From positions 1 through 32,059 of the IMG/VR virus record IMGVR_UViG_3300025543_000123: DNA of 32,059 nucleotides; one strand, written 5' to 3'. The notes below the pieces were generated by a model. It worked only from the letters and a program-made list of their open reading frames with translations, ran no database searches and was not told the origin of the DNA. A program made the position numbers and the translations under genes. The DNA comes from a virus. Taxonomy: Duplodnaviria; Caudoviricetes. This document shows positions 681-32,059 of the stretch, piece by piece; positions within the stretch are counted from its first letter, which is position 1; every line of letters starts with the position of its first letter.

Positions 681-1055
681 ATGAAGAAACCTACTCGTAA
701 ATCTTTAGTTACAAAACTAGATACTGTGTTTAGTCAATACATAAGACGCAAGGATGCGGTGAATGATATTGCTGAGTGTATTACTTGTGGTAAAAAAGAC
801 CATTATAAAAAATTGCAATGTGGTCATTTTATGAGTAGAAGACATTACTCTACTAGATGGGATGAGAATAATGTTGGTGTTCAATGTTATGGTTGCAACA
901 TCACTAATCAGGGTCAACAATATATTTTTAGTCAATATCTTGGTAATAACTTATCTGAAGAAATGTATTTAAAATCAAAACAAATAGTTAAATTTGCTGA
1001 TGTAGATTTAATTGATATGATTGATTATTATACTGAAAAGGTTTCTATGTTATAA
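681..1055 (+). CDS. NinG/Rap-family recombination endonuclease
   Basis: CITCG...QCGHFMSRRHYSTRWDENNVGVQCYGCN zinc/HNH-like pattern; ATG at 681 preferred to TTG at 675. Confidence 0.85.
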   Translation: MKKPTRKSLVTKLDTVFSQYIRRKDAVNDIAECITCGKKDHYKKLQCGHFMSRRHYSTRWDENNVGVQCYGCNITNQGQQYIFSQYLGNNLSEEMYLKSKQIVKFADVDLIDMIDYYTEKVSML

Positions 1056-1080
1056 AATTCTTTCTTTCCTGTTTTAATAT

Positions 1081-1167
1081 GAATAGCATTAGTAGCCACC
1101 GCTCGAAGGGTAATAAATAAGAAGCTACTTTAATATATTGTGGCCGAAATCGCAGTATAATCTATTC
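1081..1167 (+). ncRNA. Candidate structured RNA (three-way junction)
   Basis: GAATAG/CTATTC closing stem, AGTAGC/GCTACT stem, TATATTGTGG/TCGCAGTATA stem with G-U pairs; non-coding and GC-richer than its flanks. Confidence 0.35.
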
Positions 1168-1182
1168 GACTTTTGTTTGTTG

Positions 1183-1209
1183 AAAGCCCCTTTAATTAGG
1201 GGTTTTTTT
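1183..1209 (+). terminator. Intrinsic terminator
   Basis: GCCCCT-TTAATT-AGGGGT followed by a T tract. Confidence 0.85.
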
Positions 1210-1223
1210 ATGCTTAAAAAGTT

Positions 1224-1280
1224 TTAACAAAATTTTAACAAAATTTAAAAATCAATATGTTTAAATATGTTGTATATTTA
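1224..1280 (+). promoter_or_regulatory. Early promoter in front of the cassette array (TTAACA-N5-TTAACA box plus TATATTTA)
   Basis: Same architecture and spacing as 3453-3509, and the same AAACAAATAGAAATTATG leader. Confidence 0.65.
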
Positions 1281-1307
1281 CACCATAGAAATAAACAAAT
1301 AGAAATT

Positions 1308-1535
1308 ATGAAATCAGCAATGAATCAATTAGAAAAATGGATTTTAGATTACGAAAAAGTAAATGGATCTCCAACAATGTGCGAAATTAAATCACAATTA
1401 GAAATGTTTAAAGAAGTTGAAAAATAACAAATTTTTGATGCTTATGATGCTGGAAATGATTTTGATGGAGATTGGGAAGCAGAAGAAAATTATTATAAAG
1501 AAACATTTGGCGACAATATAGAAGCTGGAATATAA
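1308..1535 (+). pseudogene. Cassette A gene with in-frame TAA at 1425-1427; paralogue of 2003-2254
   Basis: MKSA...EK*QIFDAY...AEENYYKETF...EAGI aligns with MKTA...EKQQIMDAR...AEEYYKNTY...QAGI. Confidence 0.75.
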
Positions 1536-1575
1536 CGGATAGCCGCTATAATTTCAGCGTGGAATTATGTAAACT
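1533..1575. repeat. attC-like element 1 (degenerate or truncated)
   Basis: GAATATAAC-GGA left end identical to element 3; only a short ATAATTTC/GGAATTAT hairpin and no intact GTT. Confidence 0.5.
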
Positions 1576-1602
1576 GAACTGCATTTAAAAAACAAAAATA
1601 TT

Positions 1603-1836
1603 ATGAAAGTAAATGGAACAGAATATGGTTTTTCAATTTTTCCTAGCTATGGAAAAGTACAGGCTGAGATATACAAGGTATCTAGTTATAAATTAGATGT
1701 AGAAATGAATATGCATATAAGACTTTTAAATAAAGATTTCGGATCTATTTTTAGAAGTCCAAATGAAAACGATTATAAAAACGCTAGAAAATGGGTTGAT
1801 ATACAAATGAAGTCTATTTTAGACGCTAACGCTTAA
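1603..1836 (+). CDS. Cassette B hypothetical protein
   Basis: 77-aa ORF followed by CTTGCTGTTAAC left end of element 2. Confidence 0.75.
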   Translation: MKVNGTEYGFSIFPSYGKVQAEIYKVSSYKLDVEMNMHIRLLNKDFGSIFRSPNENDYKNARKWVDIQMKSILDANA

Positions 1837-1845
1837 TCTTGCTGT

Positions 1846-1974
1846 TAACGGAATCGCATAACAGAAGTTACGGATAAGTAAATCCTGAAACTCCAAATTA
1901 AAGACTAATAAAACCAAGTACAAACTAAACATTAAATTAATCAACCAAGCCGTAATTACTGTTATGCAGTGTTA
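1846..1974. repeat. attC-like element 2 (129 bp)
   Basis: TAAC-GGAATC-GCATAACAGAAGTTACGG...CCGTAATTACTGTTATGC-AGT-GTTA. Confidence 0.85.
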
Positions 1975-2002
1975 TATTCTTGGCTTTTTAAACGCAAACA
2001 TT

Positions 2003-2254
2003 ATGAAAACAGCAGGACAAGATTTTTTAGAATGGTATAACTATTACGTAAAAAAATACGGATGCTCTCCAAGTGATTACGATGTGAACTATTTTTGGAA
2101 CGGAGGTAATTTAGAAAAAGAAAAACAGCAAATTATGGACGCTAGAATAGACGGAGTTACTAAAAGTTTAGCATTGCCACCTAGTTATTCTATTAAAAAC
2201 GCAGAGGAGTACTACAAGAATACGTATATCGACTCCAACCAAGCTGGAATATAA
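2003..2254 (+). CDS. Cassette C hypothetical protein (alternative in-frame ATG at 1964 lies inside element 2)
   Basis: A-rich leader before ATG 2003; the stop TAA forms the TAAC of element 3. Confidence 0.8.
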   Translation: MKTAGQDFLEWYNYYVKKYGCSPSDYDVNYFWNGGNLEKEKQQIMDARIDGVTKSLALPPSYSIKNAEEYYKNTYIDSNQAGI

Positions 2255-2373
2255 CGGAAGGTTGCTTGGCATCTGTTGCCGATAACGTGAACGGAATTAT
2301 GAAAAATAAATTTAATATTACCAGCGGATTTTCAGCTGAAAAACTAAACGGCAATAGTGCCAAACAACTGTTA
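2252..2373. repeat. attC-like element 3 (122 bp)
   Basis: TAAC-GGAAG-GTTGCTTGGCATCTGTTGCCG...CGGCAATAGTGCCAAACAAC-T-GTTA. Confidence 0.85.
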
Positions 2374-2391
2374 ACAACTGTAATTTTATGA
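2299..2391 (+). CDS. Putative 30-aa leader peptide encoded within element 3
   Basis: MKNKFNITSGFSAEKLNGNSAKQLLTTVIL*; TGA overlaps ATG 2388 (ATGA). Confidence 0.5.
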   Translation: MKNKFNITSGFSAEKLNGNSAKQLLTTVIL

Positions 2392-2693
2392 AAACATCAT
2401 TTTGGATTTTATTTAGTCTATTCTTTATTATTTATAGCTCTAAACCAACATTAAGTATTAAACCATTTGCAATTAGTTTTGAATCTCCTTACACACCATT
2501 CGGTATAATTTTTCTAATACTTTCTCTCAGTTGCTTTCAGTTACAAACAAGAAAAGATACAAAAAAAGAATTAATAAAAACTTACTACGTTGAAGGAATA
2601 AATGACGGATTTGATAAGGCTGTTGAATCAATTAATTTAGAACTAAAAAAACAAGGTAAAGAATCAAAGATAATAATTGAAAGCAACAACTAG
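2388..2693 (+). CDS. Cassette D membrane protein
   Basis: Two hydrophobic segments (FWILFSLFFIIY; FGIIFLILSLSCF). Confidence 0.8.
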   Translation: MKTSFWILFSLFFIIYSSKPTLSIKPFAISFESPYTPFGIIFLILSLSCFQLQTRKDTKKELIKTYYVEGINDGFDKAVESINLELKKQGKESKIIIESNN

Positions 2694-2706
2694 CTATTAT
2701 AGTTGT

Positions 2707-2831
2707 TAACGGAAGGTATCCTTGCTTAGTGGCTGAATTAAAACTATTGCAAACAAATATAAACTAATCATTAAATGCAAAAATTATGAGTAAAGAAAAA
2801 ACAAATGAGCCATTATGCAAGACTGATGTTA
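2707..2831. repeat. attC-like element 4 (125 bp)
   Basis: TAAC-GGAAGGTATC-CTTGCTTAGTGGCT...AGCCATTATGCAAG-ACTGAT-GTTA. Confidence 0.8.
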
Positions 2832-2923
2832 ACAAATTGGTTTGCAAGCACTGTGGTAACAAATTATGCCCAAGTCAAACATTTAATGAGGAATGTTTCA
2901 AGTGTGGTAAAAAGCCTTTGTAG
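2786..2923 (+). CDS. Cassette E 45-aa zinc-ribbon protein starting inside element 4
   Basis: MSKEKTNEPLCKTDV|NKLVCKHCGNKLCPSQTFNEECFKCGKKPL*, two CxxC pairs. Confidence 0.7.
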   Translation: MSKEKTNEPLCKTDVNKLVCKHCGNKLCPSQTFNEECFKCGKKPL

Positions 2924-2935
2924 CAAACTGTTTGT

Positions 2936-3061
2936 TAACGTTCATTATTGTAGCAGTTAAGGAAAAGTACACCTTATGCTTCGATTAAAGACCAAATTTT
3001 AAAAGTACAAAACAATAATCAAATTAATAACCAAAGCCTTAATTGCTACAATATATTGTTG
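2936..3061. repeat. attC-like element 5 (126 bp)
   Basis: TAAC-GTTCAT-TATTGTAGCAGTTAAGG...CCTTAATTGCTACAATA-TATT-GTTG. Confidence 0.85.
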
Positions 3062-3088
3062 TAGGTAGGTTTTTTAACACCACTAATT

Positions 3089-3340
3089 ATGACACCAAAA
3101 GAAGAAGCACAAGATTTAATAGACAAAATGACGATGGAAATAGGTAAATTTAACGCTAAACAATGTGCGTTAATTGCTGTTAATGAAATAATAAAATACC
3201 ACGAATCATTATTTGATAAAGGATTTAAAGATATTCATATTGCACTTTCATCGCCAATAAAAACTTATCTAGATATTATGAATCCTTTATTAAAACACCT
3301 GATAGAAGTAAGAGAAGAATTAAAAAACCTACCTGCGTAA
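3089..3340 (+). CDS. Cassette F hypothetical phage protein
   Basis: 83-aa ORF MTPKEEA...AKQCALIAVNEII. Confidence 0.8.
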   Translation: MTPKEEAQDLIDKMTMEIGKFNAKQCALIAVNEIIKYHESLFDKGFKDIHIALSSPIKTYLDIMNPLLKHLIEVREELKNLPA

Positions 3341-3371
3341 CTTTGGCACCAAAGTTGAGCAAACTTACCTA

Positions 3372-3447
3372 CAACTGCTAATATCGTATAAGCGTAGTAA
3401 ATTTATAAATTATAAAAAGTCTTATTTATTACGTTTATACTAAGTTA
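3372..3447. repeat. attC-like element 6 (76 bp, terminal)
   Basis: CAAC-TGCTAATATC-GTATAAGCGTAGTAAAT...ATTTATTACGTTTATAC-TAA-GTTA. Confidence 0.7.
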
Positions 3448-3452
3448 TAAAA

Positions 3453-3509
3453 TTAACAAAATATTAACAGTTTTAAATAACCAATATTTAAAAAACATTT
3501 ATATATTTG
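3453..3509 (+). promoter_or_regulatory. Early promoter (TTAACA-N5-TTAACA box plus TATATTTG)
   Basis: TAnnTTTG at 3502-3509; direct repeat at 3453-3469. Confidence 0.75.
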
Positions 3510-3536
3510 TACTCAACAAACAAACAAATAGAAATT

Positions 3537-3626
3537 ATGAAAAACAATTTAAAAGATTTCGGAGCATCATTAGTATTTATGTTTATACTAATAACATTAT
3601 ACACAACTTTAATATCACTAATATAA
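3537..3626 (+). CDS. 29-aa hydrophobic peptide
   Basis: MKNNLKDFGASLVFMFILITLYTTLISLI*; first ORF after the promoter, TAATG-coupled to the next. Confidence 0.55.
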   Translation: MKNNLKDFGASLVFMFILITLYTTLISLI

Positions 3627-3805
3627 TGAAAGATTTACTAGATTTCCAAAGGTTTCAAATCCAAAGTTTGCAAAATAGAATATGTGAACTTGAAAATCAA
3701 AACAACATTCTTACTGAATACATTTTTGAAGCTTTAGACGAACAATGTACGCAAGAATATAAGACTATAATAAAAAAAGAAATTTACACCTTAAAACAAC
3801 CTTAA
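3626..3805 (+). CDS. Hypothetical protein (59 aa)
   Basis: MKDLLDFQRFQIQSLQ...; fills the gap, coupled to neighbours. Confidence 0.65.
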   Translation: MKDLLDFQRFQIQSLQNRICELENQNNILTEYIFEALDEQCTQEYKTIIKKEIYTLKQP

Positions 3806-3806
3806 A

Positions 3807-4088
3807 ATGAAAAAAGTTTTATTTTCAGCAATTATTATAACAACGTTATTTAGTTGCACAAATAATGAGTTAATACAAGAGGATTGTAGTTGTGATGAAA
3901 TAGTAAGTAAAAAAGTTTCTGCTGATTATGGTTCTAATCCAAGAGTAATAGTTTTATATCACACAAAAAATTATTGTTCAAATGTAGAAAAAGATTTTAA
4001 TTTAGTAATCGACGCAACTTACTCAGGAGTAATTAATGCGTTAAATGATTCTAGGATTCAAGAAATAGGTAAATGTTATAAAAAATAA
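3807..4088 (+). CDS. Putative lipoprotein
   Basis: MKKVLFSAIIITTLFS-C lipobox, additional Cys residues. Confidence 0.75.
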   Translation: MKKVLFSAIIITTLFSCTNNELIQEDCSCDEIVSKKVSADYGSNPRVIVLYHTKNYCSNVEKDFNLVIDATYSGVINALNDSRIQEIGKCYKK

Positions 4089-4093
4089 ATAAA

Positions 4094-4651
4094 ATGGAAA
4101 ATATGTTATTACAAGAAAAATTATCAATTATTCAAAAAGAATTTAAAGCAAACAAATCAAAATTTAACAGTTTTGGTAAATATAACTTTAGAAGTGCTGA
4201 GGATATATTAGAAGCCTTAAAGCCTTTTAATGAAAAGTATAAAGTTAGTTTTATTATTAAAGAAAAAATGATTAGTTTTGACCCTCCAATTATGTTATCT
4301 GAAGCTATTATTTACGATAATAATGGAGTAAATGAATTATCAGCATCAGCAGTAGTTGGTATCGACTTAGAACAGAAAGGAATGCAAATGCCACAAAAAT
4401 ATGGTTCTGCTAGTTCTTACGCTAAGAAATACGCATTAGGTAACTTACTATTAATTGATGACACACAAGACCCTGATGCAAGTAATAAGCACGACAAAAC
4501 AGAATCAAAAACAGATGATAAAAAATGGTTAAATAAAAATACACCTGAATTTAAAAAAGCAGTTGAATATTTAAAAAATGGTGGTAATATTGTAACCATT
4601 GAATCTAAATATAAAATGACTAAAGAAGTCAAAGAAGAGTTAACTAAATAA
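4094..4651 (+). CDS. ERF-family single-strand annealing recombinase
   Basis: FNSFGKYNFRSAEDILEALKP and GSASSYAKKYALGNLLLIDDTQDPD motifs. Confidence 0.9.
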   Translation: MENMLLQEKLSIIQKEFKANKSKFNSFGKYNFRSAEDILEALKPFNEKYKVSFIIKEKMISFDPPIMLSEAIIYDNNGVNELSASAVVGIDLEQKGMQMPQKYGSASSYAKKYALGNLLLIDDTQDPDASNKHDKTESKTDDKKWLNKNTPEFKKAVEYLKNGGNIVTIESKYKMTKEVKEELTK

Positions 4652-8946: not shown

Positions 8947-8991
8947 TTAACGTTTCATTAACACTTTATGTTTAAAAGTTGTTTATATTTG
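8947..8991 (+). promoter_or_regulatory. Early promoter (TTAACG-N5-TTAACA box plus TATATTTG)
   Basis: TAnnTTTG at 8984-8991; 8984-9009 identical to 14811-14836. Confidence 0.75.
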
Positions 8992-9020
8992 TACTCAGAT
9001 AACAACAAATAAAAAAACAT

Positions 9021-31002: not shown

Positions 31003-31295
31003 TGACAAAGCTTGAATCAGAAAAAATAGACCGTTTAGAAAGTCATTTTAAAGTGTATAAATCTGATATGGTTGATGTAATAGCTAGCGTTAGAAATATA
31101 GAACAATCTTTAATAGGTTCACCTTTAAACGGTCATAAAGGAATAGTTCATTTATTAGATTCTATTGATGAAAGAGTAAAAGATTTAGAGAAAAAACAGA
31201 TATTAGCAGATGATAGACTTGAGAAGTTTAAGTGGTTTCAAAGGGGATTTATAGGAGTGATTTTTGGTTATTTAACGTGGTTAATAAGTAAGTGA
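31002..31295 (+). CDS. Coiled-coil protein with C-terminal TM (lysis-associated)
   Basis: Between holin and endolysin. Confidence 0.6.
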   Translation: MTKLESEKIDRLESHFKVYKSDMVDVIASVRNIEQSLIGSPLNGHKGIVHLLDSIDERVKDLEKKQILADDRLEKFKWFQRGFIGVIFGYLTWLISK

Positions 31296-31296
31296 T

Positions 31297-31743
31297 ATGA
31301 AGCTAGATGCAAATGGAATAAATTTTTTATCTGAACTTGAGGGATTAGAATTAAAAGCATATAAATGCTCCGCAGGTGTATGGACAATAGGATTAGGAAA
31401 TACATTTTATTCTGATGGTTCTAAAGTAAAACAAGGCGATGTTATAACTAAAAAAGATGCTTATGATTTATTTCATCTAATAGCGATTAAATTTGAAAAA
31501 GCTATTAATGAAAATGTAAAAGTTAATTTAAATCAAAATCAATTTAACTCTTTATTTTGCTTTGTTTATAATATAGGTATTACTGGGTTTAAAAATAGTA
31601 CACTTTTAAGATATGTAAATCTAAATCCTAATGATGGAAATATAGCTAAACAATTCTTGAGATGGAATAAGATAGCAGGAAAAGAATCTAAAGGATTGAC
31701 AAATAGAAGAATCAAAGAATCAGCTTTATACTTTAAAAAATGA
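31297..31743 (+). CDS. Endolysin, GH24 lysozyme
   Basis: EGLELKAYKCSAGVWTIGLG, QNQFNSL, GLTNRRIKE. Confidence 0.95.
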   Translation: MKLDANGINFLSELEGLELKAYKCSAGVWTIGLGNTFYSDGSKVKQGDVITKKDAYDLFHLIAIKFEKAINENVKVNLNQNQFNSLFCFVYNIGITGFKNSTLLRYVNLNPNDGNIAKQFLRWNKIAGKESKGLTNRRIKESALYFKK

Positions 31744-31940
31744 ATGATAAATATTTAATATTAACGGAAGCTAAAAGTATTAGAGAACAATTTTCAACAG
31801 AAAAAGAGTTTGAAGATTGGTTAAGAATAGATTTTGAAGGTTCACACTATGAAGATTTATTATTTGCTTTACAAGTATTTGAAGAAGCTGAAATGTATGA
31901 AGACTGTATAATAATTAAGAAAATCTTAGATGAATTTTAA
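31740..31940 (+). CDS. Hypothetical protein
   Basis: 66-aa acidic ORF. Confidence 0.6.
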   Translation: MNDKYLILTEAKSIREQFSTEKEFEDWLRIDFEGSHYEDLLFALQVFEEAEMYEDCIIIKKILDEF

Positions 31941-32059
31941 AATAAGTATTATCATATGTGGTGCACTTTTTTTTAGTTGTGCATCTAGAAAAGTAGATAT
32001 AAATAAAACAGAAATAAAAAAAGATAGTTTAGTTGAAAAATTAATTACTATTAAAGATA
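31930..32059 (+). CDS. 5' part of the u-spanin-like lipoprotein (continues at 144-496)
   Basis: ATG 31930, lipobox FFSC. Confidence 0.7.
   Translation, partial: MNFKISIIICGALFFSCASRKVDINKTEIKKDSLVEKLITIKD
31934..32059 (+). repeat. Terminal direct repeat, copy 2
   Basis: Identical to 18-143. Confidence 0.95.

Follow-up and report, generated by a model that had tools for sequence, protein, structure and literature searches.

An integron-like row of hairpin elements in a phage genome, with probable gene starts inside the elements and head–tail junctions at a valine codon

The locus described here raises the question of what a hairpin element provides for the gene that lies behind it. A sequence-only reading had proposed that the elements of a phage array supply translation starts, leaders and N-termini to the next cassette, such that expression and N-terminal sequence depend on the upstream neighbour and shuffling would create fusion proteins and switch genes on or off. 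The window analysed is the whole assembly, a single contig of 32,059 nt, and a profile scan of its 54–55 open reading frames (ORFs) gave matches to terminase, portal, tape-measure, endolysin, ERF and Thy1. None of these 54–55 ORFs is a tyrosine recombinase, and tblastn of the window with a related recombinase found nothing at E≤1. The contig is likely to represent a complete, circularly permuted genome with an assembly artefact at its start, because it begins with a perfect 22-nt palindrome (positions 1–44), its final 60 nt repeat positions 88–147, and the near-identical contig L019 joins 31019–32059 to position 18 onward. The host is likely to belong to the Bacteroidota, as judged from the element pattern described below, since most loci with this pattern lie in Bacteroidota genomes (80 of 130, among the loci listed with names) and in GenBank the phage matches are limited to two Flavobacterium phages. 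The cultured Flavobacterium phages hattifnatt9-1 and 11b have the same layout as the window array.

Between 1530 and 3450 the window holds a row of hairpin elements of the form AAC-arm-loop-arm-GTT with short genes in between (Table 1). A detector built on the arms finds four elements in the entire window (elements 2 to 5), all inside the array and on one strand; over 110 kb it returned 121 matches in real DNA against 3 in shuffled DNA, and the array elements are real hairpin sites. Elements 1 and 6 are missed by the detector and were recognised by eye and by folding. Folding z-scores of whole elements are weak, element 3 excepted, because the loops are long and unstructured, and the arm detector was therefore used. 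Its 200-nt limit in the cassette and linkage counts leaves out long-loop elements, and was widened for the counts of long elements and of zinc-ribbon loci. Neither Pfam nor PHROG has a family for genes A–D or for the zinc-ribbon protein, and an Rfam scan of 1000–4200 gave one chance-level match and neither Flavo-1 nor any other family. The promoter-like repeat ahead of the array presumably resembles the Bacteroidota -7 motif.

Table 1. Coordinates of the array features and of the ERF-family gene in the window.
Feature	Position	Strand	Remarks
Promoter-like repeat	1256..1305	+	Upstream of array; copies at 3485-3534 and 8967-9016 (repeat family D1)
Gene A	1308..1535	+	Resembles gene C by eye; in-frame TAA at 1425 breaks the frame
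Element 1	1534..1575	+	Degenerate: AAC and short hairpin, without intact GTT box
Gene B	1603..1836	+	Starts at its own ATG; L020 (full cassette) and L183 hold homologues
Element 2	1847..1973	+	AAC 1847, GTT 1971; ATG 1964 in paired 3' arm
Gene C	2003..2254	+	Own start at 2003
Element 3	2253..2372	+	AAC 2253, GTT 2370; widespread family
30-aa ORF	2299..2391	+	Opens in element 3 loop; ATGA overlap with gene D
Gene D	2388..2693	+	Own ATG with favourable context; matches no family
Element 4	2708..2830	+	AAC 2708, GTT 2828-2830; A-rich loop with ATG 2786; loop and 3' arm encode 14-aa head
Head and tail protein, 45 aa	2786..2923	+	14-aa element-coded head, Val15 = GTT, 31-aa CxxC...CxxC zinc-ribbon-type tail
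Tail module GTT...AAC, 112 nt	2828..2939	+	Ends mutually complementary; homologues have equal length and equal ends
Element 5	2937..3060	+	AAC 2937, GTT 3058; copy 87% identical in L046 heads a different gene
Gene F	3089..3340	+	phrog_21441 (PHROG of unknown function); own ATG
Element 6	3373..3446	+	Terminal hairpin preceding second promoter-like repeat; candidate attI-like entry end
ERF-family single-strand annealing protein	4094..4651	+	Profile match; outside array; candidate for short-homology route

Several features of individual elements deserve record. Gene A has no element before it here, while its homologue is preceded by an element-2-type head in contigs of two sequencing runs (joint 1975->1305). 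The element 3 family has a member, 92% identical, in the cultured phage hattifnatt9-1, and a GC-rich short inverted-repeat element of another kind occupies an element-3-type site in another contig, replacing its AAC end (L005:637-760 and 1300-1400). The closing stem of cassette F is nearly duplicated 35 nt further upstream (3325-3375), and this second copy overlaps the stop codon of gene F. The promoter-proximal end of the array (1308-1575) is decayed, with a stop in gene A, a degenerate element 1 and a gene B whose 5' and 3' ends mismatch; such decay would be expected if new cassettes came in at the opposite, 3' end, remote from the promoter.

To which gene, then, does an element belong? In a classical integron it would belong to the preceding cassette, the crossover would lie at GTT, and every shuffle would change the start and N-terminus of the gene behind and could switch that gene on or off. 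Some observations fit this arrangement: N-termini do change at the GTT/Val codon, the upstream element differs in 7 of 17 same-cargo pairs, and five of the 32 rows of one element family yield only a mini-ORF past GTT. The linkage runs against it. Among 883 pairs of phage elements at ≥85% identity, which are not independent in that they share families and contigs, the upstream gene is shared in 0 and the downstream gene in 57, and the 9 nt before AAC are shared in 20 against 203 for those after GTT (background 1.7% and 1.9%). Seventeen pairs have the same cargo in different arrays; ten of them keep the upstream element, nine at an identity of 0.81–1.00 and the tenth with a loop deletion, and none keeps the downstream element (identity 0.30–0.69; background mean 0.52). 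Identical cassettes in L039 and L080 match from AAC to the next AAC and break in the TAACG core. Furthermore, the two ends of a cassette (9 nt after GTT and 9 nt before the next AAC) are complementary at a mean of 7.0 of 9 positions over 271 segments, compared to 3.6 of 9 both across the element and in random pairs. The idea that element and downstream gene are inseparable, drawn from nine pairs, was corrected by the larger set, in which seven pairs differ in the upstream element.

The position of the recombinase speaks to the same point. Eight phage loci end with the AAC of the last cargo and no hairpin, followed by a tyrosine recombinase frame of 267–301 codons that matches PF00589 and mostly also PF13495; a classical array would not be expected to end at a bare AAC ahead of its recombinase. 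Five of these phage recombinases were scanned and score 128–155 bits, under the TIGR02249 integron-integrase cutoff of 265; three host loci (L309, L317, L355-357) have longer recombinase frames nearby, of 379–450 codons. The bare AAC of the eight loci, standing ahead of the recombinase, suggests that cassettes enter at the 3' end of the array, and the promoter-like repeat of the window lies at the opposite end; in other contigs, different cargos end at element 6. As to strand, the coding strand of the arms is richer in G.T than in A.C pairs (813 vs 401), and position 8 of the outer stem is G.T in 196 and A.C in 0 of 242 cassettes. In attC sites the recombining bottom strand carries the same G.T bias (Nivina et al. 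2016, PMC5027507, in the part available). Cargo lies on the G.T-rich strand in 298 of 362 phage segments, and on the other strand in 81 of 96 host segments; the host chromosomal arrays (L284-L413) draw on the same element family and have their genes on the other strand. Because of the linkage, the AAC breaks, the complementary ends, the recombinase position and the G.T strand, the moving unit is the element plus its downstream gene, in effect an integron cassette with the gene turned round. The sequence-only reading had thus mis-drawn the cassette to which an element belongs; the head is not provided by the cassette upstream, and the linkage gives no support to the view that a gene's N-terminus depends on its upstream neighbour. 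The classical arrangement is already largely refuted by linkage, and we regard it as highly improbable.

The likeness to integrons is nonetheless considerable. Features shared with attC arrays and with the integrase-less clusters of attC sites known as CALINs (PMC9892861, PMC5027507) include short genes separated by imperfect hairpins with AAC and GTT at their borders, complementary cassette ends, and the strand, richer in G.T pairs and purines, in whose AAC cleavage is inferred (PMC5027507); these accounts are cited from their accessible sections. The window has the layout of a cluster of attC-like sites without an integrase, as called by the arm detector. Phage CALINs are known (Qi et al. 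2023), and the accessible text of that paper (PMC9892861) mentions neither Bacteroid-, Flavobact- nor 'start codon'. The differences are equally clear. No integron integrase gene lies beside the window array, and the related recombinases fall below the integron-integrase cutoff. Classical cassettes run gene then attC with the crossover at G|TT, whereas here the element is linked to the gene downstream and the main break is at AAC; the phage genes are read on the recombining strand with the site 5' of the gene, whereas host Bacteroidota arrays are classical. The spacers here are about 5 and 1 nt, the outer stem has 12 bp with a fixed T.G and conserved mismatches, and the loops reach about 300 nt and carry coding sequence. 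The spacers and conserved mismatches of window-type elements appear to depart from classical attC geometry.

Within this framework the starts inside elements can be judged individually. ATG 2786 is fused in frame across the GTT to the CxxC...CxxC segment exactly as had been noticed. That this segment has no start of its own is correct for ATG; an in-frame TTG does occur at 2837, in poor context (score -6.0). Start contexts were scored with a matrix built from the 43 window genes outside the array, relative to 590 non-start ATGs, and ATG 2786 lies at the 97th percentile, comparable to the starts of gene C (98th) and gene D (97th). In this phylum, A at -3 and no use of Shine-Dalgarno sequences are described (Baez et al., PMC6847099, accessible part). 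Four relatives of element 4 place an ATG 45 nt before GTT and join it to four cargos unrelated to the zinc ribbon. ATG 2786 is thus supported as the probable start of the zinc-ribbon-type protein.

In-element starts of this kind occur across the relatives of the window array. A cassette was counted as start-dependent if its frame is open back to GTT and no ATG of its own lies in the first 60 nt, which holds for 70 of 296 phage cassettes with sense cargo; the largest cargo family contributes 11 of the 70. An in-frame ATG is present in the preceding element of 67 of these 70, compared to a mean of 24.4 under random pairing of elements (sd 4.0, maximum 38 in 1000 runs) and 25 with the following element. 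Taking one cassette per cargo family, 50 of 53 have an in-element ATG (null mean 18.2, maximum 29). GTT is read as Val in 38 of the 67, and the other two frames account for 25 and 4. In one element family (32 rows) the distance from the ATG to GTT is 42 or 41 nt; the ATG agrees with the frame of the long cargo in 27 rows, and the remaining five yield mini-ORFs before cargos with a later ATG. By eye, many start-dependent cargos (in L022, L028, L030, L051, L079, L083, L086, L091 and others) resemble DNA methyltransferases lacking their own Met. In-element starts exceed chance, and a supply of starts and N-termini by the elements is supported, both at 2786 and across the relatives. Random pairing, as under the classical arrangement, would leave about two thirds of start-dependent genes startless; observed are 3 of 70. 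With silenced cargos this rare, the data do not demonstrate the proposed switching of genes on and off by shuffling.

It could be argued that the frames are accidents of AT-rich DNA and the combinations assembly chimeras across repeats. The relatives are all metagenome assemblies, the two cultured phages excepted, and two of the features discussed below, ATG 1964 and the ATGA overlap, seem to be accidental. This explanation is scarcely credible, given 67 of 70 against a null maximum of 38, junctions that share only 4 nt and could not be produced by a k-mer assembler, and the genes gp18 of the isolate hattifnatt9-1 and gp5 of the isolate 11b, both annotated as beginning inside elements.

The other two in-element ATGs fare differently. 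The 30-aa ORF does cross the GTT of element 3 and overlap gene D as described, and it is a role as functional leader that finds no support. ATG 2299 has an average context (43rd percentile); among 15 distinct members of the element 3 family, that of the window included, the in-frame ATG is kept in seven, the ORF ends 7 nt past GTT in 13, and the ATGA overlap occurs in the window alone. The same cargo occurs behind ATG in L009 and behind TTG in L014. Translational coupling through the overlap was rejected, as such overlaps are not enriched (7 of 161 own-start cassettes against 9.9 under random pairing, with three gap widths tried), and mini-ORFs crossing the GTT are rarer than random (67 vs 104 of 161 own-start cassettes). 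The ORF is likely to be a by-product, a left-over head before a gene that needs none, which may be weakly translated. ATG 1964 is indeed in frame with gene C, which it would extend by 13 codons before ATG 2003. As a start it was rejected: its context is at the 1st percentile, none of nine gene C homologues carries the 13-residue extension, all opening at or within three residues of the Met at 2003 (starts as chosen by gene callers), and one contig joins the promoter region (1300) directly to 1997, giving gene C without element 2. Three related elements have the same ATG as part of the arm palindrome in a different frame. ATG 1964 is likely not a start. All three reading frames of the sequence-only reading are hence present, and of its three starts 2786 stands.

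Translation signals inside recombination sites have precedents. Known examples are ORF-11, ORF-17 and ORF-18 of attI1, short reading frames within attC, and cassette fusions such as gcuF1-blaOXA-28 (reviewed in PMC8876359); in these, as far as the accessible sections of the review describe, a recombination site gives translation signals to a gene without them and cross-junction fusions exist, but the signals are tied to position, in the first slot or the upstream cassette, and mostly act by coupling. In the window elements, by contrast, the signal travels with the gene and belongs in frame to the protein itself, and this design extends across the family.

The prediction that zinc-ribbon N-termini switch at the Val (GTT) codon was borne out. 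A profile-free full scan with the 45-aa protein gave 27 matches (a word-index search returned only the protein itself), of which 24 were aligned, the long repeat proteins P0019 and P0026 being excluded. In 19 of the 24 a Val lies 5–6 residues ahead of the first Cys, and the heads before it, of 14–72 residues including that of the window, are unrelated (best local score 34 in 190 pairs); five of the 24 have no Val junction, and L428/L429 are without a junction. At the DNA level, 12 of 14 non-self loci contain the tail as a frame-0 GTT...AAC module, and eight different heads of 123–269 nt were resolved, every one with a loop ATG. The tails of L415 and L419 are 100% identical over 112 nt and those of L420 and L421 98% identical, with related arms and unrelated loops in both pairs. 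Here the loops are swapped while arms and tail are kept; in L415/L419 the replaced stretch begins immediately behind the ATG. This amounts to a third level of exchange inside the hairpin. In the tails of L415-L427 the first 6 nt after GTT and the last 6 nt before AAC covary in about five variants while the next bases are constant, and this paired block of 6 bp beside the fixed T.G mismatch could be a recombinase spacer.

The reciprocal pattern is seen from the side of the head. The 53-residue element-coded head of L419 has 64 homologues, 55 with the junction Val, whose tails fall into 32 families, and one identical head among them carries 10 tails, among those listed; the protein database is clustered at 90%, which inflates tail diversity, and each junction still exists. 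Within phages, 16 of 21 long elements (≥150 nt) fuse at least 15 codons to at least 20 cargo codons, and 31 of 47 element pairs at 97–100% identity already differ immediately after GTT. One of the tails behind the 53-aa head, that of P0063, is an FtsK-gamma domain (PF09397, scoring above cutoff); real domains do become captured as tails. In the window itself the order gene D, element 4, tail is unchanged in the contigs of five covering sequencing runs, which as contigs carry no information on starts, strands or levels; runs X9 and X10 look like one data set, small-share RNA runs were set aside, and the single RNA run on record gave one 152-nt contig. No excision circles or deletion joints of the window phage occur in the run contigs, which proves nothing, and a pattern search with the 3' arm of element 4 found only a near-identical phage. 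In-frame head–tail fusions jointed at GTT thus occur in the sequences, and what did not stand is their origin in ordinary shuffling, which moves head and tail together at AAC. Taken as a whole, the earlier interpretation is supported on elements giving starts and N-termini and on the switch at Val, and finds no support on dependence on the upstream neighbour, on the starts at 2299 and 1964, or on on/off switching.

Two further systems bear on such a joint. In shufflons (Rci and pilV of IncI plasmids) a tyrosine recombinase site within the reading frame fuses a constant N-terminus to variable C-termini (PMC5430464, cited from its accessible part); there, a few fixed segments are inverted behind one constant N-terminus, whereas here all elements lie on one strand in direct order, both halves vary, the pool extends across many phages and the enzyme of the GTT exchange is a candidate only. 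The rAID-1 arrays of Bacteroidales share an XerD-like recombinase and integron-like intergenic repeats (Ross et al., 10.1101/471110), the criterion being a recombinase that has >44% identity with BF9343_RS08045 and lies upstream of low-GC genes in the same orientation. Compared by description only, they differ in being chromosomal with immunity-gene cargo, and the accessible text mentions no starts in the repeats. The words 'integron' and 'cassette' are absent from the accessible text of the hattifnatt isolate paper (PMC7077304), and the open-licence literature, subscription journals lying outside this scope, yielded no description of inverted cassettes with coding loops in the sections available. 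The window system works like an integron with a shufflon-like joint; its array has neither an integron integrase nor the polarity of an integron.

We consider it probable that the locus is a hairpin-first, integron-like array in which element and gene move together at AAC, and in which front and back halves are re-paired at GTT in a second and perhaps rarer exchange. This draws directly on the frames, the linkage of element and downstream gene, the AAC and GTT breakpoints, the in-frame bias, and the occurrence of one tail with many heads and of one head with many tails. A short Xer-type recombinase, presumably supplied in trans, would cut the folded coding strand, the likely main substrate, in AAC, and recombination there would move element and gene as a unit, each cassette carrying its own A-rich start in an unpaired loop. 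Elements would often encode the start codon and the first 14–70 residues of their gene. Less often, exchange at GTT would re-pair heads with tails; in-frame products would be new head–tail proteins, and products in another frame would disappear or persist as mini-ORFs before own-start genes, of which 2299-2391 would be an example.

Two routes to the exchange at GTT come into consideration. The favoured one, on which we are evenly divided, is use of the other strand of the near-symmetric site by the same recombinase. Recombination of this kind would remove tail n together with head n+1, and head n would then stand before tail n+1. In classical attC sites the opposite strand is used at 1,000–10,000-fold lower rates (PMC5027507, accessible part). 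No pair keeps a tail together with its downstream head, the direct footprint expected of this route, and the element has moved from behind to in front in only 1 of 17 pairs, the element belonging to a very common family. Short-homology recombination is a possible, less favoured route to the exchange. As a full account, in which the anatomy is the same and re-pairing is not site-specific, it would act in the 3' arm or TGTT core, for example through ERF, with products filtered for a hairpin and an open frame. An ERF gene is present at 4094-4651, and L415/L419 and L420/L421 share arms and cargo (98–100%) and not loops; where heads have a common arm family, as in these two pairs, the break may lie anywhere in the 3' arm and so cannot be called site-specific. 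Different tails of one head, moreover, often share their first 4–8 residues, which places breaks also downstream of GTT. Of the seven same-cargo pairs with different upstream elements, four need an in-element start (cargo identity 95, 91, 86 and 78%), and either member of each pair has an in-frame ATG. In the three most similar of these pairs (L048/L187, L086/L173, L157/L184) the heads share only T before GTT, too little for annealing by homology, which counts against this account. The tails of one head, too, part ways directly after Val, where six different residues are found. We judge this account of the whole to be rather unlikely.

Alternatively, heads and tails may have been joined once, when a cassette was created by capture into a common site family, and never exchanged later. 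One capturing site family would predict that elements sharing the sequence after GTT carry different genes, as 146 of 203 such pairs do, and the head domain is also found in ordinary proteins without the arm peptide in 6 of 64 cases. Both halves are reused, the same tail (up to 100% over 112 nt) with unrelated heads and identical heads with many tails, and a single joining is improbable in that light. More tentatively, and with slightly less than even confidence, we propose that the two-sided hairpin is a phage protein-shuffling system, in which one recombinase moves cassettes at AAC and re-pairs loop-encoded N-terminal with cargo C-terminal domains at GTT. If true, Bacteroidota phages would share a combinatorial small-protein library in a fixed frame, with a visible route for the birth of new cassettes.

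Integron cassettes are taken to move whole genes, and how they arise is, to our knowledge, an open question. In the array described here the recombination site is itself coding sequence; the start signal accompanies the gene, and the two halves are re-paired at a fixed codon which the site marks; one tail occurs with 20 heads, that of the window and those of 19 homologues, and one head with 32 tail families. If driven by a recombinase, this would be programmed domain shuffling in phages, and would account for small 'hypothetical' phage proteins with mosaic ends and give a testable handle on how cassettes are made. The presence of the layout in two cultured Flavobacterium phages makes it a system that can be tested at the bench.
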